Positions 11,405-54,795 of a stretch of 64,000 nucleotides of DNA are shown here, piece after piece. The notes beneath the pieces were generated by a model that saw nothing but the letters and a program-made list of their open reading frames with translations, was not told the DNA's origin and ran no database searches. Source of the DNA: Candidatus Multivorans sp. (GTDB taxonomy: Bacteria > Acidobacteriota > Thermoanaerobaculia > Multivoradales > Multivoraceae); NCBI GenBank assembly GCA_965247095.1, contig OZ251997.1:4387689-4451688 (forward strand), read 5' to 3'. The stretch's first letter is position 1; the number at the start of each line of letters is the position of its first letter. The translations under genes and the position numbers were made by a program.

Positions 11405-11412
11405 CGACGACG

Positions 11413-13241: not shown

Positions 13242-16200
13242 GTGGAGAGTAGGAACGTGGCGGGCTGTGCCGGTTCGGATTCGAGAGGGCCTTTCGCCCC
13301 TCTCCTCTGGTTGGGGCTTGTCGGCTGTTCGTTGGCGATGTTCCTACCGGTGGCGCCCGCGGGCGGCATCGTCTACGTCGCGCCCGGTGACGACGTGATG
13401 GTGGACCGGACACCGATCATCGTGTTCGGTGAAGTGCGGTCCGTGATGGCGGCCCCCGGGGCGTGGCGACCCTCCACGGACGCTTTCTTCGAGGTGGAGG
13501 AAGTGTTGAAGGGGAACGTCGCCGGCGGCACGATCGTTGTCCGGCAACCCGGGGGTGTCAGCGCGGACGGCGTGGTCTCGGGCATCTTCGGCCTGCCGAT
13601 GATGGCGGCTGGCGACCGGATGCTGCTCTTCCTCGAGGAGATTCCGGATACCGGCGCCGTCGCCGCCTACCGCACGGTGGATTTGTCTCTGGGCATGTTC
13701 TTCGAGGTACGGTCGGCCGCGGGCAATCTGCTTGTGCGCGAGGCGGCGCTTCATGAGGCGGCGCCGGCGTCGAACGGTGAGGCGGATTCCGAGCCGGTGA
13801 GCCGGCAATTCCGGAGTAGCGATGACTTTCGCCGCTGGATCGGTGACCGCGTGGGCGGCGTGGAGCGAGAGGTGGACTACTTCACCGCGGCCGTTCCAGC
13901 CGACGGGCCGGTCTCCCGGATCTCGCCCTACCGGTTGATCAAGTCTCCCTCTGTATGCGACGCATCCAACCTGCCGCTTCGGTGGCAGCAGTTCGATCGT
14001 GGACGGAGCGTCGGGTTCACGATCCAGGCCGAAGGGCAGGTCGGTGTCCCGGGCAGAGGAATCGCCGAGGTAGCGCGCGCGATGCGTGCCTGGAACGACG
14101 ATCCGGAGAGCCGCGTTCAGCTCGTGAATCTGGGCACCACGAACAAGAAGGCCGAGATCGCCCGAAGCGACGGTGTCAACTCGATCCTCTTCGAGGATCC
14201 GCACGACGAGATTCGGGGCTACTTTCCCTCGACCTCAGGCATCCTGGCCATCACCCGTTACCGCTTCTTGTGCTCGGAGACGAACCGCCACAAGATCCCC
14301 GGCAACAGGTGGCAGGAGGCGTTGCCGCTCCTTGAGACCGACATCCTGACCCAGGACGGTTACGGCCAGGGCTGGGCGGCCCGGACCCTCAACGCCGGCA
14401 AGGTGCATGAGTACGTGATGGCTCATGAGTTGGGCCATGCCATCGGCCTCGCTCATTCCTGCGCCCAGGGGTTTGCCGATACATGCAGCGCCCTGACCGC
14501 CGATTCCCTGATGCAAGCGATCGCGAGCGGCAAGCGGATCTACCGCGGTGGCGCGCCCAACGCCGACGATCTGGCGGCCGTGCGCTTTCTCTACCCAGCG
14601 CATGGCGGACCTGCCAGTCCGTCCGATCTGACTGCCAAGACGGTCGATCAGCACAGCGTAGAACTTGCCTGGAAGGACAACTCGAACGACGAAACGGCGT
14701 TCGACATCTTCGAGCGTCCCATCAACGAGAAGGACTTCAAGCTGATCGCCAGTGTCGGGAGCAACACGACCTCCTTTGTCGTCGAAGGACTGCCGGCGGC
14801 GACCTATCGCTCCTACCGGGTGGCCTCCAGCAATGCCGGTGGACGGTCCTCGGCTACCAACGAAGCCAGCGCGGTGACGCTCGGCGAGGTGCGGGCATGC
14901 GCCGAGGATGACCAGACTCTGTGCCTGAACGAAGGCAGGTTCCAGGTCACCGCGGAGTGGGCGACCGCGGGCGGCGGCGCCGGCGGGGGCGTCGCCGTGC
15001 CGCTGACCGCGGACACCGGCGCCTTCTGGTTCTTCGATTCAGCCAACGTGGAGATGGTCGTCAAGGTGCTCGACGGCTGCGGTCTGAACGACCACTTCTG
15101 GGTGTTCGCCGGTGGCTTGACCGACACCCAGACCGGCGCGACGCGCACCTACGCCAACCGCCTCGGTAGCCCGTTTCGGCCCGTGAAGGACACCACCTCC
15201 TTCTCGTGTACTGCCACGGATGACCACGGCGATTCCCGTGCGGAGGCGACCGACATTCCGCTGGAAGACTCGTGGGCCGGCTTCCTGGGGGCCGGCGACA
15301 CCGACTTCTTCATCTTCCGGGTTCCCCGCGCCGGCAGGGTGCAACTCCGCACAACGGGTACGACCGATACCGAAGGTGTGCTGATGAACGCTGCCGGATC
15401 GGTCCTGGCCAGCGACTCGGACTCCGGCGCCGAGAAGAACTTCCGATTGACCGTCCCGGTGGGGCCGGGGACGTACTACGCACGCGTGACCGCCGCGGAT
15501 GTCGAAACGACCGGCGTCTACACGTTGCACACGGGGTTCTCGGCCACGACCGTCATCTCCAGGCGGGACCGCGACGCGCTGATCGCGCTCTATCGGGCGA
15601 CCGATGGCGACAACTGGACCGACAAGGAGAACTGGCTGAGCAACCGCCCGCTCGACGAGTGGTACGGCGTGACCATCAGCTCGGGCGGCCGCGTGACCTG
15701 GGTCGACCTGAGCGAGAACGGGCTCAGAGGTGAGGTTCCGGCGGCGCTCGGCGATCTGGATCGACTCCGGGTGCTCGTACTGAGCGGGAACCAGTTGACT
15801 GGGGCCGATCCCCCGCGAGGTCGGCAATCTCCGCGACCTTGTGTGGCTGTTCGTGCAGTCGAACGAGTTGACAGGCGAGCTTCCGCGGGAGCTGGGCCGC
15901 CTCTCCAACCTGGTCTACCTGTACGTGTACTCGAACCGACTGACCGGCGAGATTCCAGCGGAGCTGGGGCGCCTCCCCAACCTGGCGTACCTGCGACTGG
16001 GCTTCAATGAACTGACCGGCGGCATTCCCGGCTCGTTCCGCAACTTGAGCAGGCTGAACCTGCTGGGGGTGCGAGGCAATCGGTTGACCGGCGAGATCCC
16101 TTCCTGGCTGGGCGAACTGAGGGACATGAGGCGGCTCTGGCTCGGGGACAACGAGTTCTCTGGCGGCATTCCGCCGGCGCTCGGCAATCTGACCGACCTG

Positions 16201-40534: not shown

Positions 40535-43126
40535 TCAGACGACGATGTTGACCAGCCGGCCCGGCACCACGATGACCTTGCGCGGCGCCCTGCCGTCCAT
40601 GAAGCGCCGGGCCTTGGGGGAGGCCAGAGCGAGTTCCTCCAGGGTCGCCCTGTCGGCGTCGGCGGCGACCTGGAGCACGTCGCGCTTCTTGCCCATGACC
40701 TGCACGACGATGTTGATCGTCTCGTCGACCACCAGGGCCGGATCGTAGGCCGGCCAGTCCTGGTGGCAGATCAGGCCCTCGCAACCCAGCCGCGACCACA
40801 ATTCCTCGGCGAGGTGTGGAGCGAAGGGCGAGAGCACGCACAGGAAGGTCATCAGCGCCTCGCGCGGTACGCGGTCGGCGGCGGTCGCCGCGTTGACCCA
40901 GATCATCATCTGCGAGATCGCGGTGTTCATGTCGAGCGTGTCGATGTCCTCGCCGACCTTGCGTACGGTCTTGTGGAGCAGGCGATTCAGTTCGCCGGCG
41001 ACTTCGGCTGCGTCGCTGCTGACCCGGGTGGCGCCGCCGCCGGTCCGCTCGTCCACGACCAGGCGCCAGGTCCGTTGCAGGAAGCGGTGTACGCCGTCGA
41101 CGTCCTTGGTCTGCCAGGGTTTCTGCTGGTCGAGCGGCCCCATGAACAACTCGTGCAGCCGCAGCGTGTCGGCGCCCCAGCGCTCGATCACGTCGTCCGG
41201 GTTGGCGACGTTCAGCTTCGACTTGGACATCTTCTCGACCCGGGCTTCGAGCGCCTCGTCCGTGCCGGCGAGGAACACACGTTCGCCACGCCAGTCCACC
41301 GTGTCGGGGTGGTGGTACTTGCCGCCCTGGTCGCGGTAGCTGTAGGCCAGGATCATCCCCTGGTTGAACAGCCGGGCGAACGGTTCGGACGTCGAGACCA
41401 GCCCCGCGTCGTAGAGCACCTTCTGCCAGAAGCGGGCGTAGAGCAGGTGGAGGACCGCGTGCTCGACGCCGCCGATGTAGAGGTCGACGGGCATCCAGTA
41501 TCGCTCCAGCTCGCGTGACCAGGGCGCCTCCGTGTTGTGAGGATCGATGTAGCGCAGGAAGTACCAGCAGGAGCCTGCCCACTGCGGCATCGTGTTCGTT
41601 TCGCGCCTTGCTTTGCGGCCATCCGGCAGGGTCACGACGAGCCAGTCGTCGCCGGCTCGGGCCAGCGGTGGACGCCCGTCGGCGGTGGGCTTGAACTCGT
41701 CCACTTCGGGCAGCTCGACCGGCAGGTCGTCCTGCGGCACGGGCAGGATCTCGCCGGTGGGCTCGCCGTCGTCGCCGAGCACGTGCAGCACCGGGAAGGG
41801 CTCGCCCCAGTAGCGTTGGCGCGAGAAGAGCCAGTCGCGCAGCCGGTACTCGACGCGCCGGGTGCCGTGGCCCTCAGAGGCGAGCCACTCGATCATCCGT
41901 TCCTTCGCCGCGTCGACCAGGAGGCCGTCGAGGAAGCCGCTGTTGATGGCCGGGCCGTCCTCCAGGTAGGCGTCGCCTTCCCAGCCGGCGGGCGGCGCCA
42001 CCGTGCGGACGATGGGCAGGTCGTACTCCACGGCAAAGTCCCAGTCACGCTGATCCTGGCCGGGAACGCCCATGATCGCGCCGGAGCCGTAGCTCATCAG
42101 CACGTAGTCGGCGACCCAGATCGGGATCGGCTGGCCGGTGGCGGGGTTCGTGGCGTAGGCGCCGGTGAACACGCCGGTCTTGCTCTTGGCCAGGTCGGTG
42201 CGCTGCAACTCGCTCTTGTTCGTCGCCTCGTGCACGTAGGCGTCGACCGCGGCCCGCTGATCGGCGACCGTGATCCTGGCGACCAGGGGATGTTCGGGCG
42301 CCAGCACGCAATAGGTGGCGCCGAACAAGGTGTCGGGACGGGTCGTGAACACGGGGAAGCTGTCGTCGCTATCCGCAATCGGCATGAGGATCTCAGCGCC
42401 GTGCGACTTGCCGATCCAGTTGCGCTGCATCTCCTTGACGTACTCCGGCCAGTCGACCTGGTCGAGGTCTTCCAGCAGACGCTCGGCGTAGGCGGTGATC
42501 CGGAGCATCCACTGCCGCATCGTCCGCCGCTCAACGGGATCGCCGGTGTCGACGTAGGCGCCGTCCTTGATCTCCTCGTTGGCGAGTACGGTGCCCAGCG
42601 CCGGGCACCACCAGACCGGCACGTCCTCCAGGTAGGCGAGGCCGCGCTTGTGGAGCTCCAGGAAGATCCACTGCGTCCAGCGGTAGTAGTCGACCGAGGA
42701 CGTGTCGACTTCGCGCTCCCAGTCGTACGAGAAACCGAGGCGCTCGATCTGCCGCCTGAAGTTGGCGATGTTGCGCTGCGTGATCAGCCGCGGGTGCTCG
42801 TTCTCGCGCACCGCGGCACGCTCCGCCGGCAGGCCGAAGGCGTCCCAACCCATCGGATGGAGGACGTTGAAGCCCTCCATGCGCCGCTTGCGCGCCACCA
42901 CGTCGGTCGCCGTGTAGCCCTCCGGGTGGCCGATGTGCAGCCCCGCCCCGGAGGGGTAGGGGAACATGTCGAGTACGTAGTACTTGGGCCGGCTCGCGAG
43001 GAGCTCGGGGTCGTCCGGGGTCCGGAACGCGCTCTGCTCTCGCCAGATCTGCTGCCACCTGGGCTCGATCTCGGCGGCGTCGTAGACGTGCCGGCGGGGC
43101 CTGGATTCGGGATCCTGCGTCGTCAT
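40535..43126 (-). CDS. leuS: Leucyl-tRNA synthetase
   Basis: 863 aa. HIGH motif (PYPSGAGLHIGHPEGY) and KMSKS (VEKMSKSKLN). Confidence 0.95.
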   Translation of the reverse strand: MTTQDPESRPRRHVYDAAEIEPRWQQIWREQSAFRTPDDPELLASRPKYYVLDMFPYPSGAGLHIGHPEGYTATDVVARKRRMEGFNVLHPMGWDAFGLPAERAAVRENEHPRLITQRNIANFRRQIERLGFSYDWEREVDTSSVDYYRWTQWIFLELHKRGLAYLEDVPVWWCPALGTVLANEEIKDGAYVDTGDPVERRTMRQWMLRITAYAERLLEDLDQVDWPEYVKEMQRNWIGKSHGAEILMPIADSDDSFPVFTTRPDTLFGATYCVLAPEHPLVARITVADQRAAVDAYVHEATNKSELQRTDLAKSKTGVFTGAYATNPATGQPIPIWVADYVLMSYGSGAIMGVPGQDQRDWDFAVEYDLPIVRTVAPPAGWEGDAYLEDGPAINSGFLDGLLVDAAKERMIEWLASEGHGTRRVEYRLRDWLFSRQRYWGEPFPVLHVLGDDGEPTGEILPVPQDDLPVELPEVDEFKPTADGRPPLARAGDDWLVVTLPDGRKARRETNTMPQWAGSCWYFLRYIDPHNTEAPWSRELERYWMPVDLYIGGVEHAVLHLLYARFWQKVLYDAGLVSTSEPFARLFNQGMILAYSYRDQGGKYHHPDTVDWRGERVFLAGTDEALEARVEKMSKSKLNVANPDDVIERWGADTLRLHELFMGPLDQQKPWQTKDVDGVHRFLQRTWRLVVDERTGGGATRVSSDAAEVAGELNRLLHKTVRKVGEDIDTLDMNTAISQMMIWVNAATAADRVPREALMTFLCVLSPFAPHLAEELWSRLGCEGLICHQDWPAYDPALVVDETINIVVQVMGKKRDVLQVAADADRATLEELALASPKARRFMDGRAPRKVIVVPGRLVNIVV

Positions 43127-44441: not shown

Positions 44442-45359
44442 CTACGCGCAGTTGCAGAGTTCGATGAAGAAGGCGCGGACGGTGTCGATGAACTCGGGGG
44501 AGGTCAGGGTGTTGAGGTGGTTCGCGCCTTCGATGACGTGGAGGCGGTGCTCCTGCATGACGCCGACCAGGGCGTCGGCGTTGGGCTTCAGGGGATCGTC
44601 GCTGCCGATGATGTTGAGGGTGGGGACCTGGTTGATGCGCAGGAGTTCGGCGCTCAGGTCGAGCGCGGGCATGCCGCGCACCACGGCGGCCAGGGCCAGC
44701 GGGTCGTTCGAGGCGACCATCGCCTGACCGATCGCCTGAACCTGCTCTGATGTCGGCGGTTCGTCCCCGGGCCACAGGAACTCGATCAGCGGACCTCCGC
44801 CCTTGCCCGCCTCGAGCGACGAGGCCAGCGCCCCGTACAGATCGTCGTCGCGCAGTTCGGCGCTCGGCCACCCGGCGCCGCCGACCACCGCGGAGAGCAG
44901 CCGATCGGGCGCCAGGGCGATGAGCTTCATCGTGATGAAACCGCCCATCGAGTAACCGACGACGTTCGCCTGCTGCAGCCTCATGTGGTCGAGCAGATCG
45001 ACGACATCCAGGGCCATGCGCTCGCCGTAGTTCGTCGGGTCGTGCGGCTTGTCGCTCTTGCCGTGGCCGCGCTGGTCGACGGCGATGACCTGAAACTCCT
45101 CGGCCAGGCGGTCGATGATGCCGGCGGCGCCCCAATTCGAGGCGGCGGTGCCGGTGATGCCGTGCAGCAGCACCACCGGGTCGCCGCGGCCCTGGACCTG
45201 GTAGTGGATGGCGACGCCGTCGCTGGCCGTGAAGGTCTGGGTTGTCGCCTCGCTCTGGGCGTAGGCGGCGGTGAACGCGGCGAGCGCGAGCAGCGTTGCC
45301 AGGACGGCGCGGCACATCGGCCGGAACATCGGCCGGAGATTCGTCGTACTCGTATTCAT
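44442..45359 (-). CDS. Alpha/beta-fold hydrolase with signal peptide
   Basis: The ATG at ~45357-45359 is preceded by GGAGG (MNTSTTNLRPMFRPMCRAVLATLLALAAFTAAYAQ). Nucleophile elbow GYSMGG and HGxxG (LLHGITG). Confidence 0.8.
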   Translation of the reverse strand: MNTSTTNLRPMFRPMCRAVLATLLALAAFTAAYAQSEATTQTFTASDGVAIHYQVQGRGDPVVLLHGITGTAASNWGAAGIIDRLAEEFQVIAVDQRGHGKSDKPHDPTNYGERMALDVVDLLDHMRLQQANVVGYSMGGFITMKLIALAPDRLLSAVVGGAGWPSAELRDDDLYGALASSLEAGKGGGPLIEFLWPGDEPPTSEQVQAIGQAMVASNDPLALAAVVRGMPALDLSAELLRINQVPTLNIIGSDDPLKPNADALVGVMQEHRLHVIEGANHLNTLTSPEFIDTVRAFFIELCNCA

Positions 45360-45466
45360 GGAGGTCCTCCGAGGTTGGCGAAGGCTAGCAAGCCACCGGT
45401 GGAAGCGCTCGCTCCGATAGGCTCGTTTCCGTCGAGCCCCTGTGACCAACGCCGGAGGAGTCGCTG

Positions 45467-45931
45467 ATGAGCGCAACGAACACGGAACAGACGGAGCAGG
45501 AGTCGAAGTCCCGGTCGCTGGTGGACTCGGCCGTGGAGACGGCGCACAAGGTCGCGCTCGCCGGCGTCGGTGTCGCGGGCGAGGCGGCCGATGCGGGGGT
45601 CAAGGTCTTCGACCGGCTGGTCGAGCGCGGCGAGAAGATCGAGGCGCAGGGGAAGGTGTCTCTCGATGCACTACGGGTCAAGGCCGAGGAGCGCGTCGGG
45701 CAGGTGCGCACCGTGGCCGGAGAGCGGTTCGAGAAGACCCGGGCCCGGGCCAGGTCCGGGATTGACGAGCAGTTGGAGCGCCGGCTGGAGAAGATCGGGG
45801 TGCCCGGCAAGGCTGACTTCCAAGCGGTGGTCGAGCGGCTGAGCGCGATCGAGGCGCGCCTCGAGGCGCTGGAGAAGAAGCCGAAGCCGCGGCGGCGGAC
45901 GGCGAAGAAGGCGCCGGCGAAGGCCGAGTAG
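45467..45931 (+). CDS. Phasin-family protein (PHA-granule-associated protein)
   Basis: 154 aa, coiled-coil, Ala/Glu/Lys-rich with a basic C-terminus (KKPKPRRRTAKKAPAKAE). Confidence 0.6.
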   Translation: MSATNTEQTEQESKSRSLVDSAVETAHKVALAGVGVAGEAADAGVKVFDRLVERGEKIEAQGKVSLDALRVKAEERVGQVRTVAGERFEKTRARARSGIDEQLERRLEKIGVPGKADFQAVVERLSAIEARLEALEKKPKPRRRTAKKAPAKAE

Positions 45932-46003
45932 CCGGTCCGTCTTCGATCTCAGCGTCCACTCAGGTTGACGCTGCACACTCAAAGCTCGCTTCGAGGAGGC
46001 TGA

Positions 46004-46663
46004 GTGACGATGAAGACAGTGAGGAGTTCCCGGGCTTGGATTCCGGCAATGCTGATCGTAGTGTGGTCTCACGCGGCCCCGGGCCTGGCAGAAGACGGCA
46101 GGTTCGATCTGGGCTTCCGTACGGACATTGGTCTGGGTACCGGCCATCCTTCCAACGACATTCCGGGGTACAGCCTGTTCGGTCACTACGGGCTCAACGA
46201 GCGCTGGAACATCGGCTTCGGCCTGGATCACTCGCCGGCATTCGACTTTGAACGAACACCCGGCGTTCTGGGACTGGAGACGCCGGAAGTGATCGACGCC
46301 AAGGGTGCGTCCACGACGTTCTCAGGCTGGCTGGAACGCGTCTACGCGCGCCCTGAAGGTCGCATCGAGTGGTTCTGGAATGTCGGCCTGGGGTTCAGTT
46401 CGGTCGACATGAAGGACGTGGCGGGACCCGTAGTGGGAGGAGGCGCCTTCGACATCGCGACAGACGCCGGAAGCGAGTTTCTGGCCATGGTCGGCGTGGG
46501 TGTGAGGTTCTGGTTCGGCGACAGTTGGGGGTTCGAGTTCGCGATTCACCATGATCGGCATTTTGCGGACTGGAAGCTGACGGATCGAGTCTCAGGCAGG
46601 ACCGGAACGGTCTCCGACTACGAAGTGAACACGATCAACGTAGGTTTCCTGAAGAGGTTCTGA
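46004..46663 (+). CDS. Outer-membrane beta-barrel protein (OmpW/OmpA-like small porin)
   Basis: 219 aa with a signal peptide, alternating hydrophobic beta-strand pattern and a C-terminal aromatic residue (GFLKRF). Confidence 0.6.
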   Translation: MTMKTVRSSRAWIPAMLIVVWSHAAPGLAEDGRFDLGFRTDIGLGTGHPSNDIPGYSLFGHYGLNERWNIGFGLDHSPAFDFERTPGVLGLETPEVIDAKGASTTFSGWLERVYARPEGRIEWFWNVGLGFSSVDMKDVAGPVVGGGAFDIATDAGSEFLAMVGVGVRFWFGDSWGFEFAIHHDRHFADWKLTDRVSGRTGTVSDYEVNTINVGFLKRF

Positions 46664-46700
46664 ACCCGGGCTCTTGGGGCCACGCGGACGACCTGCCGGG

Positions 46701-49340
46701 TTAGGTCGTCCGATGGCGGGCCCTTCGCGGGCTTCGCAGCGCGCGGACGAACTCGCGCACGGTCGCCGGTCGGGCGCCGGCCCGAATCCGTTCCTCCGCC
46801 AGGTCGAACGCCATCTTCCACTGCCGGCGCAGAATGCCGTGGGCGGCGAAGAATCCATAGCGGCGGTCGTACATGTGGGTGGCCTCCGAAGTGACGCCGT
46901 TCACTTCGAGTACGCGGATGCCCTCGCCGCGCTGGAGCGCTTCGCCGCTCGGGACCCGTACGTCGAAGCGGCCGAAGTCGAAGCCGTCGTAGGCGGTGCT
47001 GATCGCGTTCATCGCCTGTTCGAGTTCCTGAGTGTGGAGGTGGTTCGCGTCGAGGAAGATCGTGCCGCGGGAGTGCGCGCCGACCTCGGTCAGTTCGACG
47101 ATTTCGCCGGCTGCCGGCGTTCGCGTCGCGGCATCGGGATGCTCCTTCGCGTAGATGGGTGCGATCGCAACGGCGCGGCGGTCCAGGAGGATCAGCCGCT
47201 CCAGGGTGCTCCGGCCGTCGCCGGTCACGGTCGGCCGCAACTTGTGGGTGATCGAGAAAACGTGCCCGTCCGACCGGCCGGGATGCCGGGCCCAGAAGAC
47301 GCCGTACTCCTCGCCCGCGACGTACTCCTGTACGAGTGCCGGTCCGGGCGTCGCCTCGAAGAACCCGGCCGCGTCGGCTTCTGAGTGCGCTACGGCGATG
47401 CCGCGTCCCCGCTCGCCGGTGTCGGGCTTGAGGACGGCGGGGTAGTCCAGGTCTTGGTCCGCCAGGAACCGCCGGAGCGCGTGGAATCGCTCCTCGCTGT
47501 CTCCCGGCGCTAGCCGCCGCCAGACCGGCAGGGCGTCGCCAATGCCGGCCAGGCCGTCCAGGATGTCGCTCTTCGACTCCCCGAGCAGGCCGCCCAGGGG
47601 CATGGCCGGGTTGATCGCGGTGAAGAAGGCAGGTCGGCCGCGGCGCAGGCCCTGCCACAGGATGAAGAGAGCCAGGGGCGGGTAGAAGGCCCACATGGGC
47701 CAGAACTCCCAGTGCCGGATTCGCAGCAACCGGCCGCGCCAGAGCCGGCGGCCGCGCCAGGTGAGGAGCGGCAGGACGAACGTGCGCACGCCGAAGATCA
47801 GGAGCGCCAGCGCCAGCGCCGCCGCGAGCAGGCCGCCGGGCAGGCGGCCGCCGAACCGCTCGACGGCCTCGCGGCCCAGCAGCGCGTTCATGCCCACGAA
47901 CGCGGGCGTCCAGATCGCCACGGCCAGGGCGAAGTACATGCAGAAGCGGAGCAGGCTGGTGCGCAGGATGCCGGCGGCGAGGCAGGTCGGCAGCCGCGAA
48001 CCGGGCAGGAAGCGGCTGATCAGGACGACCACCAGGGCACGTCGCCGCAGCCATGCGGAGGCCTCCTCGATCGCGGCCTCGCTGACCCACCACTTGAACG
48101 GCGGCAGCTTGAGCGCGGGCCGCCCGAGGATCCGGGCCAGCCAGGCGAGTCCCAGGTCGCTGCTCAGGATGCCGATGTAGCAGGCGGCTACGGCGACGGG
48201 GAAGTCGAGCCGTCCCTGGGCGATGAGCAGACCGGCCGTGATGCAGGTCAGATCCTCACTCAGATAGGCGGCGAACACGAGGAGCAGGAAGACGATGAGC
48301 AGGGCCGGGCCGGTGAACGGCGGCAGGTCCGTGTCGTCGAACGGCATCGCTGCCCGCCGCAGTCGCTCCGGTTCGGCGTCGGCGCGTGTCGGCGCCTCGC
48401 CGGCTTCGACGCGGCCGAGGAACTCCTCGATTCGTTCCGCCAAGTCGTCGCCGCCCCGGAACAGGAAGAAGTGACTGTCGGGGCGCATCCACAGCTCGCT
48501 GTGGGGCACGATGCGGTGGTGTTCCAGGGCCGCCGCGGCCGGCACCAGCGGATCCTGTTCGCCGTGGACGATGAACACCGGCGCTTCGAGCGCCTCGAGG
48601 ATCCCGCGCATCGGGCGCTGGTCCGTGTCGTAGAAGTTGCGGGCGTAGGAGCGGGCGACCGGACTGTCGAAGGCGCCGAAGTGCGGGACCAGATTGCGCA
48701 GTCCCCAGAACAGGCCGAGCTGGAGACCGTGCAGGCCGTGGTTCACGGTGTAGTCGCCGAGCAGTTCGAGTTCCTGGACGCCGATCGAGGCGACGAGAAC
48801 GAGCGACGCCACCCGATCGGGGGAGTCGTCCGCCATGTGCAGTGCCGGGCCGCCGCCCATGCTGAAGCCGAGGGCATGGAAACGTTCGACTCCCAACTCG
48901 TCGAGCAGGACGACAGCCGCTTCGGCGTGGGCGCGGATCGAGTAGTCGTTCACCCTGCGCTCGGAGGCGCCGAAGCCGGGAAGGTCGGGGGCGAGGACGC
49001 GGCGCCGTTCCGCGAGCCGGGGCGCCAGACGCCGGAAATCGTCCGCGCTGCCAGGTGAACCGTGGAGAAGTACGAGGGGCAGGGGCTCGTTCTCCGATTC
49101 GGCGCCGGCCGGCGCCGGCCACTCGCGCCACGCCAACCGGACCGGCCGGGAATCGCTCCCGGGAAGCGGCGCCTCGACGGTTTCTCGGCCCGGCGGCAGC
49201 GGCGCCGGGTCGGCCGTGACGCGCGCCAGAGTCGAGGCCAGCAGCAGCGCGGCGTAGACCCCGAGCAGGACCTTCAGCCAGATCCGGCGTCGTCGCGGGC
49301 GCCGATCGTCAGTCCGCTTCGGGAATGCCGATGGGACCAT
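46701..49340 (-). CDS. Three-domain fusion: alpha/beta hydrolase + DedA/VTT membrane domain + ATP-grasp ligase-like domain
   Basis: 879 aa. N-terminal hydrolase (LVLLHGSPGS...GFSMGGG...). Middle DedA signature (...LISRFLPGSRLP... with ~6 TM helices). C-terminal ATP-grasp-like region (...YPAVLKPDTGERGRGIAV...LVQEYVAGEEYGVFW...RVLEVNGV...). Overlaps olsA by 32 nt. Confidence 0.7.
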   Translation of the reverse strand: MVPSAFPKRTDDRRPRRRRIWLKVLLGVYAALLLASTLARVTADPAPLPPGRETVEAPLPGSDSRPVRLAWREWPAPAGAESENEPLPLVLLHGSPGSADDFRRLAPRLAERRRVLAPDLPGFGASERRVNDYSIRAHAEAAVVLLDELGVERFHALGFSMGGGPALHMADDSPDRVASLVLVASIGVQELELLGDYTVNHGLHGLQLGLFWGLRNLVPHFGAFDSPVARSYARNFYDTDQRPMRGILEALEAPVFIVHGEQDPLVPAAAALEHHRIVPHSELWMRPDSHFFLFRGGDDLAERIEEFLGRVEAGEAPTRADAEPERLRRAAMPFDDTDLPPFTGPALLIVFLLLVFAAYLSEDLTCITAGLLIAQGRLDFPVAVAACYIGILSSDLGLAWLARILGRPALKLPPFKWWVSEAAIEEASAWLRRRALVVVLISRFLPGSRLPTCLAAGILRTSLLRFCMYFALAVAIWTPAFVGMNALLGREAVERFGGRLPGGLLAAALALALLIFGVRTFVLPLLTWRGRRLWRGRLLRIRHWEFWPMWAFYPPLALFILWQGLRRGRPAFFTAINPAMPLGGLLGESKSDILDGLAGIGDALPVWRRLAPGDSEERFHALRRFLADQDLDYPAVLKPDTGERGRGIAVAHSEADAAGFFEATPGPALVQEYVAGEEYGVFWARHPGRSDGHVFSITHKLRPTVTGDGRSTLERLILLDRRAVAIAPIYAKEHPDAATRTPAAGEIVELTEVGAHSRGTIFLDANHLHTQELEQAMNAISTAYDGFDFGRFDVRVPSGEALQRGEGIRVLEVNGVTSEATHMYDRRYGFFAAHGILRRQWKMAFDLAEERIRAGARPATVREFVRALRSPRRARHRTT

Positions 49341-50157
49341 GAACGTCGCCGAGTGCCGCCAGTTCTTCGTTCGAGACCATCGGCCGGAAGCTACCTTCCA
49401 TCGTCTCCCGCAGTTGGCGGGCCAGCACCTTCCGATCCGCGCTCTGGAGCGGCTCGTTGCCGAAGGCCACTTCCGCTTCGATGCGGCGAAGCTGCAGGAG
49501 CTCAGGAGCGTGGGGGGTCATCGCCATGTAGCCCCACCAGGCGACGCTCAGGAACGCCGGCGTCTCGTCGGGCGGCGTCTCGTAGCGGACGACGGCCCAG
49601 TGGACCGGCAGTTCCTGCCCGGCCGCGGGCGCGAGCAGGGAGGGCTTCAGCGGGGCGATTTCGTTGCCGGGTGTCGACGTGCCTTCCGGGAACAGGATCA
49701 CCGGGTCGCCCGCCGCGAGCGCTTCGGCAATCTGTTCGCCAACCTTCGTGACGTCGCGCCGCCGGCCGCGGTCGACGAAGATGGTGTCGGCGGTGCGGCA
49801 CATGGCGCCGACGACCGGCCAGTCCCGGATCTCCGCCTTGGAGACGAAGCGCCCCGGGGCCAGCGCGGAGAGCAGGAAGACGTCGATATAGGAGAGGTGG
49901 TTCGAGATCAGCAGGAAGGGCTCCTTCGGCGGTTCGCCGCGCACCGTGACCCGGCAGCCGAGGATGGCCAGACTGGCGCGTCCCCACCGGCGCAGCACCG
50001 AGCGCCGGACGGCTCGCCAGGCCAGGGGAGCGCGCCGGGCCAGGAAGGGCCGCAGGATGAGTAGCGGGAACCAGGCGGCCAGTGCCGCCAGGAGGACAGC
50101 CGGCCCCCGCCAGATCATCCGCCAGATCCGGAGAGGACTTCTGCTCTTGGGCCGCAT
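49309..50157 (-). CDS. olsA: Lyso-ornithine-lipid O-acyltransferase / PlsC-family 1-acylglycerol-3-phosphate acyltransferase
   Basis: 282 aa with PlsC motifs (SNHLSYIDVFLL and VILFPEGTS). Follows the olsB-like gene with a 4-nt gap. Confidence 0.7.
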   Translation of the reverse strand: MRPKSRSPLRIWRMIWRGPAVLLAALAAWFPLLILRPFLARRAPLAWRAVRRSVLRRWGRASLAILGCRVTVRGEPPKEPFLLISNHLSYIDVFLLSALAPGRFVSKAEIRDWPVVGAMCRTADTIFVDRGRRRDVTKVGEQIAEALAAGDPVILFPEGTSTPGNEIAPLKPSLLAPAAGQELPVHWAVVRYETPPDETPAFLSVAWWGYMAMTPHAPELLQLRRIEAEVAFGNEPLQSADRKVLARQLRETMEGSFRPMVSNEELAALGDVHGPIGIPEAD

Positions 50158-50159
50158 CC

Positions 50160-51017
50160 TCAGCGCGGCGCTGGCGGCACTTCGGGTGCCGGTGGCGCCT
50201 CGTCCAGCCCGAAGATCAGCCGGGTCCTGCGGCTGAGAGCGGTCGTGTCCATCAGGACCAGGTAGTCGATCGTTTTGAACTCGCGGTCGATCGCGGGGCG
50301 GCTGCAGACCAGGGCGCCGTAGCGCAGGTAGGTGGCGAAGAGGGGCGGGATCTTGATGTCAGGCAGTGCGGCCACGCGATCGTCGGGCGCCTCGCAGAGG
50401 GTGTGGGGGAGGGGAGGTACGTCGAACTCGGGGTGGACCTTGCCCGCCGCCTGCAGTTGCCGGTAGAGCCGGATGCCGGCCGCCTGATCCTGACTGGTCA
50501 ATGAACAGCAGCCGAACAGGTAGCGGCACTGGCTGTGGACCAGGTACCGGGCCAGACCCTTCCAGAGCAGGAACAGTACGGTCCGCTTGCGGTGGTTGCG
50601 TTGAATGCAGGCGCGGCCGATCTCGACCGACTGATCGAGAACGCTTCCGGGCAGGACGTCCAGCTCGTACTCACCGGCCGAGTAGAAGCCGCAGCCGCGG
50701 GCGGCCATCGCCGCCGTCTGCATGCGGTAGGTCCCAATGAGGTGGCCGCCCACGTCGTCGACCAGCATGTGGTGGCAACTCGCGTCGAAACGGTCGGTGT
50801 CGCGGCCGGTGGCGAAGGACTCCTCGAGGCCCTCGCCCAGTTCCAGGTTGAAGACCTCGAAGCGCAGCGCAAGGAGCCGGTCGAGGTCCTGGGCGGTGCG
50901 CGCGAAACGGAGCCGGTAGCTGCCGACTTCGATCTCGCCGTCGGGGAGAAGCTCCGGGTTGGGAAGAGTGCCCGGCGGCTCGACAGGTCGGGACGGGAGA
51001 CTCGCCGACTCGGTCAT
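50160..51017 (-). CDS. olsB: GNAT-type N-acyltransferase, ornithine-lipid OlsB-like (hemolysin-like family)
   Basis: The real start is the ATG at ~51015-51017 (MTESASLPSRPVEP...). The listed ORF extends upstream through Arg-rich sequence. The core ...YRLRFARTAQDLDRLLALRFEVFNLELGEG... fits the OlsB/N-acyl-amino-acid synthase family (from memory). Confidence 0.65.
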   Translation of the reverse strand: MTESASLPSRPVEPPGTLPNPELLPDGEIEVGSYRLRFARTAQDLDRLLALRFEVFNLELGEGLEESFATGRDTDRFDASCHHMLVDDVGGHLIGTYRMQTAAMAARGCGFYSAGEYELDVLPGSVLDQSVEIGRACIQRNHRKRTVLFLLWKGLARYLVHSQCRYLFGCCSLTSQDQAAGIRLYRQLQAAGKVHPEFDVPPLPHTLCEAPDDRVAALPDIKIPPLFATYLRYGALVCSRPAIDREFKTIDYLVLMDTTALSRRTRLIFGLDEAPPAPEVPPAPR

Positions 51018-51895
51018 GAGCCCGCCCCGGTCGCGGCGCGTATCCACTCGGTAGTGGGCACCGTCAGGAAGAGGCGGTCGTCCTTGCGCCTCAGGATGCC
51101 GGAAACCGCGACCGGCTGGCCCACCCAGTCGAGCACCTCGGTCCCCATCGGCTGGCCGCGTTCGTCCAACAGATGGACCAGACGGCGTTCGTCGTTCTCC
51201 GTTCGGACCAGCAGTGCCGCCGGGATGCCGCCGCGGATGCAGAGGGAGGCGCAGTCCCGGTGGGGCTTGCCGCGGCCCGGCTTCATGGCGCCGAGGTAGC
51301 ACTTCGTGTCGACGATTTCGCCGACGAGGGTATGGGCGCGCAGGTAGAGGCGGTCGACCTCTGCGCCCGGTGGCGGAACCACTCCAGCCGCCGCGTCTTC
51401 GCTCTCACGAGCGGGGGGCAAGCCACCGGTTCCGAGGCCGCTTGGAGAGTCCGGTTCCGCCGGAGATCCTCCGTCGACGCCTCCTTCGGTGAGTTCCAGG
51501 GAATGCACTTCGAGCATCGCCGCTTCCGGGTTCCGGATCAGCGTGCCGGAGAGCTGGATTTCTCTGGATGGTGCGGCCGACCAAGGCGCGTTGGGAGGCT
51601 CATTCGCGTCGAGCCCGTGCTTTCCTTCCGCGACCAGAAGGTAACCCGCGGCAGGTCCGTCCGCCGTGAGCAGGCGGGGATGGGGATCGATGAGCAGTTC
51701 GCCGCTGTAGTCCCGCAGCGTGCCGTACTCGAACACTCCTTCGTCGAAGCGTTCCAGCAGCAGGGCCAGGCCGGCGCCGAGCGCCGCGGCCAGCAGCAGG
51801 AGCCCGATCACGGCGCGGCGGGCGAACCGGGAGATCCCGGGCGGCGTCTCATCGAGGTAGCCGACGTAGAACTCGGGTGGCGCGACCCGCGCCAC
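51014..51895 (-). CDS. Hypothetical membrane-anchored protein with Cys-containing C-terminal domain
   Basis: There is no ATG near the N-terminal hydrophobic anchor (...ISRFARRAVIGLLLLAAALGAGLALLL...). A candidate GTG at ~51893-51895 lies inside the type-B repeat. 4-nt overlap with olsB. Start is uncertain. Confidence 0.45.
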   Translation of the reverse strand: MARVAPPEFYVGYLDETPPGISRFARRAVIGLLLLAAALGAGLALLLERFDEGVFEYGTLRDYSGELLIDPHPRLLTADGPAAGYLLVAEGKHGLDANEPPNAPWSAAPSREIQLSGTLIRNPEAAMLEVHSLELTEGGVDGGSPAEPDSPSGLGTGGLPPARESEDAAAGVVPPPGAEVDRLYLRAHTLVGEIVDTKCYLGAMKPGRGKPHRDCASLCIRGGIPAALLVRTENDERRLVHLLDERGQPMGTEVLDWVGQPVAVSGILRRKDDRLFLTVPTTEWIRAATGAGS

Positions 51896-52050
51896 CCGTG
51901 AACCAGTCCGTGCGCCCGTCAATCGGGCGCACGGATGGCACTCGTCGCGGCGTTCGCCGGTCACGAGGGCTCCTCGGGCGTGTCGGGGGGCGCTGTGCAG
52001 TCGTCGTTCCCGGGCCCCGGATGCGGGCGAGACGCCCGCGGTCCCAGGGC
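51868..52050. repeat. Composite MITE/REP-like element (type B half ... type A half)
   Basis: gaactcgggtggcgcgacccgcgccacccgtgaaccagtccgtgcgcccgtcaatcgggcgcacggatggcac...ccggatgcgggcgagacgcccgcggtcccaggg. Overlaps the 3' end of the Rieske gene and the 5' end of the next gene. Confidence 0.65.
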
Positions 52051-53079
52051 CGGCTCGGCGTGCGTACCCGGCGGGTTCGGCCTCGGGTCGACGAGTACCC
52101 GGCCACCCTCGACGCGGACGTTGAAGGTCGGGATCGTCTCGGTGAAGGGCGGCGGCGAGCATCCGTCCTCAGGGCGGTACTGGTAGCCGTGCCAGGGGCA
52201 GGTGATGCAGCCGTCGATCACGCGGCCCTCGCCGAGCGGCCCGTTCTGGTGCTGGCAGACGTTCGATACGGCAGCGATCTTCTCGCCGCCATCCGTCCGG
52301 TAGCGGAAGACGGCTACCCGCTCGCCGCTGAGCACGAAGATGCGGGCGCGGTCGAGGGGGATGTCCGAGACCGCGCAGACATCGACCGCGGCGTCATCGG
52401 TGGTCGCCGCCGGGGACGACGCGCGCCCCCGCCAGCCCGCAACCAGGTGCAGCGAGGCGATGCCGACGAACCCCACGCCGAGCAGCCCCGCGAGCTGGGC
52501 AGGCCGTTCGGCCGCCTGCAAACTGCCCAGCGCCACGTGGACGAGGATCAGCCCGTAGGCGACGTAGACCAGCATGTGCAGCGACTTCCACACCGGCGCC
52601 GTCAGGTTCGCGAGCCAGAAGTCGTGCGAGGTCGCCGCCATCAGGAACAGGATGACGAGCGCCGTGAGGCCGAGCGCCTGGAAGGGGAACTGGGTCAGGC
52701 TGTCGTAGTTGCCGTTGCTCGCCAGCACGCTGACCAGGGGATTCAGGACCCCGAGACCGTGGAACTGGACGACAGCGAACCCGCCGTGGGCGGCCGCGAG
52801 CAGGAACATGCAGACGCCGAGGTGGCGGCGGTTGTAGAGCAGGGGCAGGAAGCGCCGGTCGAGCCGGCACAGCGGACCGATGGCGAGCACCACGTGAAGC
52901 AGCAGCAGGGCGCCCGCGCCCAACGCCCGGATGAGCAGGGTCTCGATCGTTGCCTGGGGCCGCGTCGAGATGCCGATGCCGACGAACAGGCCCAGGAAGA
53001 CCACCACGCCTACGGCGACGCCCAAGTCGTAGAGCCTCTTGTTGCGGTTCCAGAGAACCGCCTGGTACCCGGCGCTCAT
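51961..53079 (-). CDS. Ferric-reductase-like (heme b) transmembrane domain fused to a Rieske [2Fe-2S] domain
   Basis: The real start is the ATG at ~53077-53079 (MSAGYQAVLWNRNKRLYDLGVAVGVVVFLG...). The TM region has paired His (LLLHVVLA, AAAHGGF, TSHDFW, KSLHMLVY). The C-terminal Rieske motif is CQHQNGPLGEGRVIDGCITCPWHGYQY (CxH...CxxH). The last ~30 aa (...GPRASRPHPGPGNDD...) are repeat-encoded. Confidence 0.7.
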   Translation of the reverse strand: MSAGYQAVLWNRNKRLYDLGVAVGVVVFLGLFVGIGISTRPQATIETLLIRALGAGALLLLHVVLAIGPLCRLDRRFLPLLYNRRHLGVCMFLLAAAHGGFAVVQFHGLGVLNPLVSVLASNGNYDSLTQFPFQALGLTALVILFLMAATSHDFWLANLTAPVWKSLHMLVYVAYGLILVHVALGSLQAAERPAQLAGLLGVGFVGIASLHLVAGWRGRASSPAATTDDAAVDVCAVSDIPLDRARIFVLSGERVAVFRYRTDGGEKIAAVSNVCQHQNGPLGEGRVIDGCITCPWHGYQYRPEDGCSPPPFTETIPTFNVRVEGGRVLVDPRPNPPGTHAEPALGPRASRPHPGPGNDDCTAPPDTPEEPS

Positions 53080-53282
53080 GGTTGCGCTTCCGCGTCCGGA
53101 TCGTCTTCGCTCGGTTCGGGCGCGTCTGGGGGTTCTACCCAGGGCGCGTCGATGGCGGTGGGCAACTTGTCCACGAGCGGCGGTTCGGGGCGCAAGAGGA
53201 GCGCGGCGGTTAGCAGCCCCGCCACGATCGGGGCCAGCACCGCCCAGACCAGACGGTGACGCCGTCGCAAACCGCGGATCAC
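53076..53282 (-). CDS. Small hydrophobic protein (68 aa), translationally coupled
   Basis: MIRGLRRRHRLVWAVLAPIVAGLLTAALLLRPEPP... 4-nt overlaps at both ends with its neighbours. Confidence 0.4.
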   Translation of the reverse strand: MIRGLRRRHRLVWAVLAPIVAGLLTAALLLRPEPPLVDKLPTAIDAPWVEPPDAPEPSEDDPDAEAQP

Positions 53283-53557
53283 GGGGAAACCCGCCTCTGC
53301 CGACCGGCGGCCGCGTCACGGTGAGCGTTGCGCTCCGTCGGAGGCTGCCGGCCGGTGAGCCACCTCAGTAGGACCACCGGCCACAACGCGGCAACGCCGG
53401 GCAGGATGATGAGCCGAAAGCCAAGGCCGGTTGCCTTGGCGGCAGGATCGACGCGGCCCACGCCGCGCCAGACGAAGAACGGGGCGAAGGCCAGTCCACA
53501 GGCGATGTACACGGCGCAGAGCAGCACCACGACCTCGGCGGCGCGCTCGATGGACAT
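53279..53557 (-). CDS. Small membrane protein (92 aa, two TM helices)
   Basis: MSIERAAEVVVLLCAVYIACGLAFAPFFVW...LIILPGVAALWPVVLLRWL. Confidence 0.45.
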   Translation of the reverse strand: MSIERAAEVVVLLCAVYIACGLAFAPFFVWRGVGRVDPAAKATGLGFRLIILPGVAALWPVVLLRWLTGRQPPTERNAHRDAAAGRQRRVSP

Positions 53558-53652
53558 CGCGGGGAGTATACGCGCGCAGCGTGGCGAACCTGCCGTAGAC
53601 TCCGCACCGGTCTTGCCTTGGACAAGTCAACCTGGACGTAGAGGAAGAGAAC

Positions 53653-54795
53653 ATGCGGGTACCGTTTCGCTGCACGGCGACGATCCACGGAGGAGGCCTG
53701 AGATCGCTGCTGCTTGCGAGCCTGATGGCGGCACTGGCGTTCCCGGTCCTTGGCCAGGGAGGCACGCAGGACGTGACCGTCGAGGCCTACGAGCCGCGCT
53801 CGACGCTGAAGGTCGCGGGTGGCTCGGTCACGCGGGCGAAGTTCCCCTTCGTCGACGCCCACGCGCACTTGCGCGGCAGCGACCCGGCGCGGATCGACCA
53901 GATGGTCCGCGAGATGGACGAGATGAACATGGCCGTGTTCGTGAACCTGAGCGGCGGCAGCGGAGAGGGACTGAAGGCGAACATCGCCGCCACCAAGGGC
54001 CGCTACCCGGGACGGTTCGTCGTCTTCGCAAACGTCAACCTCTCGGGATTGGACCAGCCCGGTTGGGGGGAAGAGGCCGCCGCGCAGCTTGAGGCGGATG
54101 TTGCGGCCGGCGCCCAGGGCCTCAAGATCTACAAGAACCTCGGCATGTTCCTGACCGACAGCACCGGCGAGCGGGTGCCGGCCGACGATCCGCGCATCGA
54201 TCCGGTGTGGGCCAAGGCGGGCGAGTTGGGCATCCCGGTCCTGATTCACGTCGGTGAACCGTCGCCGTTCTGGGCGCCCTGGGACGAGCACAACGAGCGC
54301 TGGCTGGAGCTGAAGCAGTTTCCGAACCGCCGCCGCGATGACCCCTTGCGCTTCGCCTCGTTCGAGCAGACGATGACCGAACAGCACAACCTGTTCCGCC
54401 GTCATCCGGACACGATCTTCATCAACGCCCATCTTGGCTGGCTGGGCAACGACCTGGGGCGGCTCGGGGACCTGCTCGACGAACTGCCGAACATGTACAC
54501 CGAGATCGGCGCCGTGGTAGCGGAACTCGGCCGCCAGCCGCATACGGCGGCGGCGTTTCTCACCAAGTACCAGGACCGCGTCCTGATGGGCAAGGACGCC
54601 TACGCGCCGAGCGAGTACCACGTCTACTTCCGCGTGCTCGAGACCGCCGACGAGTACTTCGACTACTACCGCAAGCGCCACGCGCACTGGAAGATGTACG
54701 GGCTCGACCTGTCGGACGAGGTGCTCGAGAAGATCTACTTCCGCAACGCGCTGAAGATCATCCCCGGCCTCGACCGGCGCCTGTTCCCGGAGTGA
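53653..54795 (+). CDS. Amidohydrolase-2 (TIM-barrel metal-dependent hydrolase) family protein, secreted
   Basis: 380 aa with a signal peptide, VDAHAHL metal-binding start and later His/Asp positions (IHVGEP, INAHLGW). Confidence 0.75.
   Translation: MRVPFRCTATIHGGGLRSLLLASLMAALAFPVLGQGGTQDVTVEAYEPRSTLKVAGGSVTRAKFPFVDAHAHLRGSDPARIDQMVREMDEMNMAVFVNLSGGSGEGLKANIAATKGRYPGRFVVFANVNLSGLDQPGWGEEAAAQLEADVAAGAQGLKIYKNLGMFLTDSTGERVPADDPRIDPVWAKAGELGIPVLIHVGEPSPFWAPWDEHNERWLELKQFPNRRRDDPLRFASFEQTMTEQHNLFRRHPDTIFINAHLGWLGNDLGRLGDLLDELPNMYTEIGAVVAELGRQPHTAAAFLTKYQDRVLMGKDAYAPSEYHVYFRVLETADEYFDYYRKRHAHWKMYGLDLSDEVLEKIYFRNALKIIPGLDRRLFPE

Follow-up and report, generated by a model that had tools for sequence, protein, structure and literature searches.

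The subject of this analysis is a gene cluster in a stretch of 64,000 nucleotides (nt) of Candidatus Multivorans sp. (assembly GCA_965247095.1, contig OZ251997.1, positions 4,387,689 to 4,451,688), hereafter the window. In this cluster, a gene for an 879-amino-acid (aa) fusion protein (termed g3) follows genes for an OlsB-family N-acyltransferase (g1) and an OlsA-family O-acyltransferase (g2). The listing of open reading frames (ORFs) of the window shows six co-directional minus-strand ORFs spanning 46701-53557 (Table 1), best read as one six-gene operon running from 53557 to 46701. A preliminary description had taken g1, g2, and g3 for a three-gene operon; all three ORFs lie where it placed them, but the genes for a small membrane protein (small92), a ferric-reductase/Rieske protein, and a Cys-motif protein (g0) precede them. 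The stop codon of g0 and the start codon of g1 are joined by a 4-nt ATGA overlap (51014-51017), g1 and g2 are separated by 2 nt, and g2 and g3 overlap by 32 nt; judged by these junctions, the four genes are translationally coupled. The 32-nt overlap had been described correctly, whereas the 4-nt overlap, assigned earlier to g1 and g2, belongs to g0 and g1. Since the G+C content is even at ~0.68-0.70 over the whole window, nothing suggests a foreign insert. A scan of positions 45400-54000 for promoters and terminators gave no signal exceeding the shuffled expectation.

As described earlier, g1 is a GNAT protein of the OlsB type, matching Acetyltransf_5 (PF13444, E = 1.6e-26); its start was placed at the ATG at 51017, and the ORF stays open as far as a GTG (51302) that lies within the upstream gene. 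The PlsC-type assignment of g2 also held, with a match to Acyltransferase (PF01553, E = 2.5e-22) and the motifs NHLSYID (HX4D) and FPEGT in its translation. The best NCBIfam models were two OlsB equivalogs for g1 (126.2 bits for NF052555 and 124.2 bits for NF052554) and two OlsA equivalogs for g2 (145.5 and 133.9 bits). These scores lie below the equivalog cut-offs, which are 320 bits (NF052555) and 350 bits (NF052554) for OlsB and 300 bits for OlsA. By sequence, g1 and g2 are thus OlsB- and OlsA-family enzymes whose ornithine specificity is unproven because the cut-offs are missed, and the ornithine-lipid assignment made in the preliminary description is not established. OlsB-family homologues that use Gly, Gln, or Lys in place of ornithine have been reported (PMC12971839). 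Compared with the OlsB/OlsA ornithine-lipid pathway of Sinorhizobium, Brucella, and Rhodobacter and its GlsB/GluB relatives, g1 and g2 show the same families, gene order, and tight coupling, but score only ~40-50% of the equivalog cut-offs. Proteins of the g1 type are ~30% identical to proteobacterial OlsB-like proteins and form their own cross-phylum group (42-57% mutual identity).

We examined g3 by Pfam and profile searches, AlphaFold 2 (AF2) modelling, Foldseek, and an alignment of 52 full-length homologues (A2), from which residue conservation was taken. The full-length AF2 model has a pLDDT of 88.9 and shows a long helix at residues 14-42. The alpha/beta hydrolase recognized earlier matches Abhydrolase_1 (PF00561) at residues 88-302 (E = 4.8e-33; 115.3 bits against a cut-off of 25.8), and its Ser160 (within GFSMGG), Asp263, His290, and HGSPG oxyanion motif (H93-G94) are invariant. 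Its best matches among PDB sequences, all about equally good, are polyhydroxybutyrate depolymerase, esterases, C-C hydrolases, and chain 6i8w (E = 1e-14), which we take to be PlaF, a phospholipase A1 with a transmembrane (TM) anchor; like g3, PlaF carries its Ser-Asp-His hydrolase behind an N-terminal TM anchor, a similarity generic for the fold, and by sequence the hydrolase domain of g3 appears generic as well. The DedA domain, also described earlier, matches VTT_dom (PF09335) at residues 368-484 (44.6 bits; cut-off 33.9) and contains the motif SRFLPGSR; residues E362, D363, R443, P446, G447, and R449 are invariant. From these residues, the hydrolase and DedA domains look functional. The DedA domain shares PF09335 and embedded acidic and basic residues with other members of the DedA/VTT family (YqjA/YghB, the undecaprenyl-phosphate transporters UptA/PopT, and the scramblases TMEM41B/VMP1). 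UptA is its best NCBIfam match, at 54.2 bits (NF052604, cut-off 250), and in g3 the DedA domain is placed between two enzymes. A sequence search of the PDB found no solved homologue of this domain.

The preliminary description had made its case depend on the C-terminal domain being an ATP-grasp enzyme. Taken alone, the C-terminal third of g3 gives weak Pfam scores (ATP-grasp_3, E = 0.025; RimK, E = 0.076) that remain below the cut-offs (15.1 against 23.2 bits for PF02655; 13.0 against 21 bits for PF08443), and the domain alone reaches E ~0.01 against PDB sequences; superfamily membership is therefore argued from profile and fold. A profile built from 50 homologous ATP-grasp sequences (A1) matched the bifunctional glutathione synthetase GshAB (E = 4e-8), CphA2 and CphA1 (1e-7 to 6e-7), a RimK-domain protein, and the D-Ala-D-Ala ligase Ddl in the PDB, with an overall range of 4e-8 to 7e-5. 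The AF2 model of the domain (pLDDT 87.4, pTM 0.86) matched CphA1, GshAB, Ddl, and LysX in a Foldseek search of the PDB (probability 1.00, E = 5e-11 to 1e-7). A homologue from Chryseobacterium passes the Pfam cut-offs of PF02222 (28.5 > 27) and PF08443 (25.8 > 21). The ATP-binding lysine K638 (VLKPD), Q671/E672 (QEY hinge), R791/D793 (GRFD), and the Mg ligands E812/N814 (LEVNG) are invariant, and the residues of the ATP/Mg site align to their GshAB equivalents in the profile alignment. The profile, the model, and the Foldseek matches rule out that the domain lies outside the ATP-grasp superfamily, and on these models we regard it as a genuine ATP-grasp ligase, closest to cyanophycin synthetase (CphA), GshAB, RimK, and Ddl.

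While the CphA G domain, the GshAB C-terminal domain, RimK, LysX, and Ddl have the same fold and ATP/Mg site and join an amine to the alpha-carboxylate of an amino acid or peptide C-terminus after phosphorylating it, the g3 domain is only 17-23% identical to them, carries a membrane-anchored helical module in which the motifs WEFWP and GESK occur, and is fused to DedA and hydrolase domains. In the AF2 model the Rossmann-like N-subdomain usual in ATP-grasp enzymes is absent, with short helices in its place. The GESK motif (residues 587-590) is family-specific and invariant, and W544, E545, F546, W547, P548, Y553, and P555 of the preceding HWEFWP...YPP segment are invariant or nearly so. Both are kept even in stand-alone proteobacterial proteins, which have an equivalent hydrophobic helix. 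Arg-rich stretches lie on either side of residues 543-566, which suggests a monotopic hairpin that would hold the active site at the cytoplasmic membrane surface. Together, the universal hydrophobic anchor and the helical N-module would fit a membrane-borne substrate.

Table 1 Features of the operon and of the g3 protein.
Feature	Position	Strand	Remarks and basis
small92, small membrane protein, 92 aa	53279..53557	-	First operon gene; no family
Ferric_reduct + Rieske membrane redox protein	51961..53079	-	PF01794, PF00355
g0, ~290-aa TM-anchored Cys-motif protein	51014..51895	-	No family match
g1, OlsB-family N-acyltransferase (GNAT, Acetyltransf_5), 285 aa	50160..51017	-	PF13444
g2, OlsA-family (PlsC-type) O-acyltransferase, 282 aa	49309..50157	-	PF01553
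g3, 879-aa fusion: TM anchor, alpha/beta hydrolase, VTT/DedA, membrane hairpin, ATP-grasp	46701..49340	-	Pfam, profile, AF2, Foldseek
g3 residues 23-42, N-terminal TM anchor	49215..49274	-	Hydropathy and charge; 8 Lys/Arg precede
g3 residues 88-302, alpha/beta-hydrolase domain	48435..49079	-	Pfam, alignment of 52 homologues
g3 residues 344-526, VTT/DedA membrane domain	47763..48311	-	PF09335, alignment of 52 homologues
g3 residues 543-566, aromatic hydrophobic segment HWEFWPMWAFYPPLALFILWQGL	47643..47714	-	Conservation, charge
g3 residues 567-879, ATP-grasp ligase domain	46704..47642	-	PDB profile, AF2, Foldseek, conservation

The fusion is not peculiar to this genome. More than 100 full-length homologues of 850-950 aa were found in independent assemblies, closed chromosomes included, from Acidobacteriota, Planctomycetota, Gemmatimonadota, and Bacteroidota, where the only annotation is "alpha/beta fold hydrolase" or "DedA"; identity is highest, at up to 90%, in genomes of Candidatus Multivorans and other Thermoanaerobaculia. 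An assembly chimera, which the preliminary description had named as a way to be wrong, is ruled out by these independent homologues. A profile search of 1.84 billion cluster representatives retrieved 1,671 clusters at E <= 1e-30 (2,826 at E <= 1e-10), the ATP-grasp family clusters (~1,700) being counted at 50% identity. Among the best 150 matches, the architectures were hydrolase+VTT+grasp (74), VTT+grasp (50), grasp alone (20), and hydrolase+grasp (6). Elsewhere the parts are encoded by separate adjacent genes (homologous loci are given L numbers where needed): hydrolase and VTT+grasp in L076; VTT, TANGO2, and grasp in L084; VTT, grasp, DinB-like, and NRDE in Salinivibrio proteolyticus; and grasp and hydrolase in Paracoccus ferrooxidans. 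Being fused in some genomes and separate neighbours in others, the three domains of g3 provide classical Rosetta-stone evidence that they act together.

No Pfam or NCBIfam model covers this ATP-grasp clade. A literature search found no description of the g3 architecture, as the preliminary description had supposed, or of DedA fused to ATP-grasp, and no relevant paper on ATP-grasp with ornithine lipids or aminolipids, on TANGO2+DinB+ATP-grasp, on NRDE/TANGO2 neighbourhoods, or on Candidatus Multivorans. In Acidobacteria bacterium Mor1 (CP011806.1, L075), the recorded gene ABI59_12020 (347 aa) is confined to the C-terminal ATP-grasp part of an uninterrupted 869-aa ORF with all three domains (6435-9044 of that locus), and the OlsA-like and DinB-like genes upstream have no recorded gene call.

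The order g0-olsB-olsA-fusion is found in all ~35 Thermoanaerobaculia/Holophagales loci. Beyond these, OlsB- and/or OlsA-type genes adjoin the grasp gene in Acidobacteriota (the distant L034, Mor1, L076, L083, and L084), in L085, in Blastocatellia (L045 and L087), Gemmatimonadota (L038), a metagenome-assembled genome (MAG) of Bacteroidota (L043), Opitutaceae/Verrucomicrobiota (L047 and L050), Chloroflexota (L052), and Planctomycetota (L086), and in the cultured betaproteobacterium Variovorax sp. PDNC026 (L082). In total, the linkage extends over at least 12 lineages of seven phyla. Among eight homologues with called genes, picked regardless of gene context, seven had OlsB/OlsA-type genes at most 7 kb away. 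Measured against their counterparts in the window, the OlsB-like protein and the grasp domain were 57/49, 54/50, 50/45, 47/45, 42/37, and 33/31% identical at the loci compared; by this comparison the two diverge in parallel, as expected for genes inherited as a unit. The preliminary description had asked whether orthologues are linked to olsBA, and they are, in distant phyla. If g1 and g2 were instead generic GNAT and PlsC paralogues and g3 an unrelated membrane protein, their adjacency would mean nothing; the missed equivalog cut-offs would fit this explanation, but the best matches are specifically OlsB and OlsA, the genes appear translationally coupled, and the linkage recurs over seven phyla. 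We judge it extremely improbable and, given the conserved linkage, close to refuted.

We hold with moderate confidence that the locus makes and remodels an amino-acid-containing acyloxyacyl membrane lipid, and that g3 uses ATP to ligate a group to the lipid head, with a domain resembling a flippase and a hydrolase that is probably periplasmic. Beyond the domain identities, intact catalytic residues, conserved fusion, and gene linkage, which are observed, we infer the substrate of g3, the direction of ligation, flipping, the topology, and the role of the hydrolase as follows. The g1 enzyme would N-acylate an amino acid, possibly ornithine, with a fatty acid that carries a 3-hydroxy group, and g2 would esterify a second fatty acid to give an N-(acyloxyacyl) amino-acid lipid. 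Held at the inner leaflet by the conserved aromatic hairpin, the cytoplasmic ATP-grasp domain would phosphorylate a carboxylate, most likely the alpha-carboxylate left free in the lipid head group, and couple it to an amine (an amino acid, a taurine-like amine, or ammonia); the product would be an aminolipid of the dipeptide type or an amidated one. Translocation of this lipid between leaflets would fall to the DedA/VTT domain, and the Ser-Asp-His hydrolase, predicted to be periplasmic, would deacylate or trim the product or hand it over. We propose the head-group carboxylate because the CphA G domain, GshAB, and RimK activate the alpha-carboxylate of an N-acylated residue or of a peptide C-terminus, and an N-acylated residue with a free carboxylate is what the lipid offers. 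In the predicted topology, the N-terminus lies inside (8 Lys/Arg), residues 23-42 cross the membrane, the hydrolase lies outside, the DedA region makes an odd number of crossings, and residues 525-545 (7 Lys/Arg) and the ATP-grasp domain lie inside, which agrees with the requirement for ATP.

In a different placement, the ligase would work upstream of the lipid or parallel to it: like an L-amino-acid ligase, it could make a dipeptide for OlsB to acylate, N-acylate an amine through an acyl-phosphate (e.g. on the side chain of an ornithine or lysine lipid), or add an acidic amino acid to that amine. Relatives of the Ddl type and of the L-amino-acid-ligase type are among the fold matches, the grasp gene lies directly upstream of OlsB-like gene(s) in Variovorax and L083, and Legionella ATP-grasp enzymes are cited as forming N-acyl histidines from fatty acids (PMC11631085). 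The universal membrane anchor and the DedA fusion favour a lipid over a soluble substrate, and the alpha-carboxylate of an N-acylated residue that CphA, GshAB, and RimK activate is the group present in an aminolipid head group; we consider such a role decidedly unlikely.

Several observations weigh against the aminolipid head-group ligase proposed here. The scores of g1 and g2 fall short of the OlsB and OlsA cut-offs; the DedA domain finds its best match, a weak one, in UptA; the topology of g3 is predicted from hydropathy and the positive-inside rule only; and the partner hydrolase of Paracoccus has no N-terminal anchor. Furthermore, the most constant neighbours of the grasp gene outside the lineage of the window are DinB_2 and TANGO2/NRDE genes, often accompanied by genes for DoxX-like and YHS (seleno)proteins; none of the four is known as a lipid enzyme. 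The commonest order there is olsB - olsA - DinB_2 - TANGO2/NRDE - (hydrolase) - VTT - grasp (L076, L087, L038, L045, L052, and L086). Finally, there are loci without olsBA nearby: Chryseobacterium has the order ECF (extracytoplasmic function) sigma - YHS - DoxX_2 - DinB - TANGO2 - grasp, Chitinophagaceae and many Verrucomicrobia have the grasp gene in similar settings, and in Azospirillum, Komagataeibacter, and two archaeal contigs it occurs alone. The aminolipid link thus appears frequent and ancient but not universal: the aminolipid substrate of the preliminary description is likely for this locus and not proven for the whole family.

Because the link is not universal, a different explanation stays alive, in which DedA+ATP-grasp (+hydrolase) forms the core of an envelope stress or redox module with DinB, TANGO2/NRDE, DoxX-like, YHS, and Rieske proteins. 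It would act on another membrane substrate, such as phosphatidylserine/-ethanolamine, lipid II or another polyprenyl-linked carboxylate, or a lipid-anchored thiol, and olsBA would merely share its envelope regulon. The loci of Chryseobacterium, Chitinophagaceae, and most Verrucomicrobia fit this explanation, as do L077, which has the entire redox set and no olsBA, the solitary genes of Azospirillum, Komagataeibacter, and archaea, the membership of the YHS partner in a (seleno)protein family (NF041384), and the UptA match of the DedA domain. Set against these are the olsB/olsA-type genes, which in many phyla and in 7/8 sampled loci are direct neighbours in the same orientation, often with overlap, the parallel divergence of the OlsB-like protein and the grasp domain, and the window itself, where none of DinB, TANGO2, DoxX, and YHS was found within the 64 kb, yet olsBA are coupled to g3. 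On balance we find this explanation unlikely, though it is the strongest competitor of the aminolipid ligase.

Frequent extra components of the wider gene set are a periplasmic YHS protein, a DoxX-like four-helix membrane protein, a Ferric_reduct+Rieske protein, and a TM-anchored Cys-motif protein; the last two are present in the window (51961-53079 and g0). The DinB_2/TANGO2 genes usually lie directly upstream of the grasp gene and overlap (L076, L087, L038, L045, L052, L086, Salinivibrio L081, and Chryseobacterium L062). YHS and/or DoxX-like members occur in L077 (5781-6737), L062 (4034-4888), and L083 (6182-7032). The YHS partner belongs to the family "YHS domain-containing (seleno)protein" and carries the motif GGYCAYG, and the DoxX-like four-TM protein is 45-58% identical across phyla; the two partners hint at a thiol or selenol redox component. 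In Komagataeibacter xylinus plasmid pA (L078, 7074-7958) and in Variovorax (L082, 10041-10937), the ATP-grasp gene adjoins a gene for an "iron-containing redox enzyme" (Haem_oxygenas_2, PF14518). Two archaeal MAG contigs with Nre genes (L059, 4294-5370, and L060) encode stand-alone ATP-grasp homologues that are 42% identical. As OlsB-type aminolipids are reported to be absent from archaea, the substrate range of the family may be wider.

The TANGO2/NRDE genes of the bacterial loci could encode a glutaminase-like ammonia donor or an N-acyl amidase. This raises the further alternative that the nucleophile is ammonia: TANGO2/NRDE, as an N-terminal nucleophile (Ntn)-type enzyme beginning Met-Cys, would act as a glutaminase, and the ATP-grasp domain would amidate the lipid carboxylate, turning a zwitterionic into a cationic lipid in the relatives and possibly here, with the partner encoded elsewhere. 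Precedents for such amidation are carbamoyl-phosphate synthetase with its glutaminase, and MurT/GatD acting on lipid II. In most loci outside Thermoanaerobaculia, a TANGO2 gene adjoins or overlaps the grasp gene, and the TANGO2 products begin Met-Cys-Thr, but no TANGO2 gene is within reach in the window or in any close relative, and the Ntn/glutaminase comparison is an analogy. We regard ammonia as very improbable here.

The aminolipid head-group ligase finds a parallel, by analogy, in MprF, an aminoacyl-phosphatidylglycerol synthase and flippase with the partner hydrolases AhyD, AcvB/VirJ, and PA0919. As proposed for g3, a head-group enzyme, a translocating domain, and an extracytoplasmic hydrolase that reverses or trims the modification would work together. 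There is no homology, however: MprF uses aminoacyl-tRNA and another flippase domain, whereas g3 has ATP-grasp and DedA domains in one polypeptide, and no MprF (DUF2156/LPG_synthase_C) or VirJ Pfam domain was among the matches of g3. The hydrolase domain could also be a transferase, as in the alpha/beta hydrolase OlsI, an ornithine-lipid O-acyltransferase that acylates lyso-ornithine lipid (PMC12493201). The ornithine-lipid modifiers OlsC, OlsD, and OlsE (hydroxylases) and OlsG (a methylase) are unrelated to g3. To our knowledge, all known modifiers of aminolipid head groups are hydroxylases or a methylase, and we know of no enzyme identified as extending the head group through an amide bond, be it with taurine (cerilipin, ATP-dependent, known since the 1970s), serine (flavolipin/lipid 654), or ornithine (tripeptide lipid).

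Two lipid groups need the ATP-dependent amide bond at an aminolipid carboxylate that is proposed for g3, namely cerilipin of Gluconobacter cerinus and the Ser-Gly and Orn-Ser-Gly lipids of Bacteroidota. The transfer of taurine to the carboxyl group of an ornithine lipid in cerilipin requires ATP, and no gene for it is known (PMC12971839). Among the Acetobacteraceae, Komagataeibacter, Gluconacetobacter, and Novacetimonas have family members, as does Chryseobacterium; Gluconobacter has no homologue among the matches listed, and the cerilipin link is a lead only. In Blastocatellia L087, three DsrE-like sulfur-relay genes (10309-11587) lie downstream of the olsB-olsA-DinB-TANGO2-fusion operon, and a TauE/SafE sulfite-exporter-family gene (14921-15817) follows ~5 kb beyond; this is of interest for the taurine-lipid lead and may be coincidence. 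For the Ser-Gly lipids, the gene that ligates Ser is likewise unidentified, and a Pfam search of Bacteroides dorei for ATP-grasp/Ddl families (PF02222 and PF07478) gave no suitable candidate (PMC12746155), which speaks against a homologue in Bacteroides. Because that search was empty, whereas the Chryseobacterium member passes PF02222, a general role of the family as the flavolipin Ser ligase is unlikely.

The three genes upstream of g1 recur beside the family as well. In L001, L050, L054, L055, and L077, the Rieske gene is preceded by a homologue of small92, for which Pfam and NCBIfam gave no match. The Rieske gene product joins an MsrQ-like haem-b TM domain (Ferric_reduct, PF01794, E = 7e-13) to a C-terminal Rieske [2Fe-2S] domain (PF00355, E = 5e-15) and, from residue 1 onward, shares 63% identity with the L077 homologue; its start is likely the ATG at 53079, the ORF being open to 53319. 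Ferric_reduct/Rieske genes are co-located with VTT+grasp genes in Verrucomicrobiota and Acidobacteriota. The g0 protein, whose start is estimated, has no match in Pfam, NCBIfam, or the PDB; it carries the conserved Cys motif CYLGAMKPGRGKPHRDCASLCIRGGIP, C-x12-HRDCASLC-x-RGGIP, is 35% identical to a 246-aa protein of L077, is found in all Thermoanaerobaculia loci, and adjoins VTT+grasp in Verrucomicrobia and Blastocatellia. In L050, L054, L055, L077, and L085 (Verrucomicrobiota and other Acidobacteriota), all three together adjoin VTT+ATP-grasp genes; they may form an electron-transfer module.

The operon is flanked by a convergent gene for an outer-membrane beta-barrel protein (46004-46663, plus strand), next to a phasin gene (PF05597; 45467-45931, plus strand), and on the other side by a divergently transcribed Amidohydro_2 gene (53653-54795); a leucyl-tRNA synthetase gene lies nearby (40535-43126, minus strand). 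A second alpha/beta hydrolase gene is located ~1.2 kb downstream of g3 (44442-45476, minus strand) and keeps this position in nearly all Thermoanaerobaculia loci. Its 344-aa product matches PF00561 (E = 2e-28), has an N-terminal signal-like hydrophobic stretch, and shares 35% identity with the core of the hydrolase domain in g3.

In summary, the g3 family is an ATP-grasp clade whose architecture is new and whose substrate class is probably new too. Aminolipids, major membrane lipids free of phosphorus, influence stress tolerance, antibiotic resistance, and host signalling, and the family offers a concrete and cheaply testable candidate for amide-forming chemistry at their head groups; it is carried by the cultured strains Variovorax sp. 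PDNC026, Acidobacteria bacterium Mor1, Salinivibrio proteolyticus, Paracoccus ferrooxidans, Azospirillum spp., and Chryseobacterium daeguense. It would be a rare case of a DedA domain with a defined lipid partner, and it would place bacterial TANGO2/NRDE and DinB-like proteins in a functional context. More tentatively, and as a possibility rather than an expectation, g3 and its split-gene relatives may constitute a hitherto unrecognized, tRNA-independent machine for remodelling lipid head groups, in which an inner-leaflet ligase making dipeptide-type, taurine-type, or amidated aminolipids, DedA-mediated flipping, and a periplasmic hydrolase or transferase that removes the added group or hands it on would work with DinB, TANGO2, DoxX, YHS, and Rieske partners in most phyla. 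If so, it could serve the cell envelope as a lipid-anchored carrier or redox system, would provide a first biochemical role for bacterial TANGO2, and would be the missing enzyme class behind cerilipin-like lipids.

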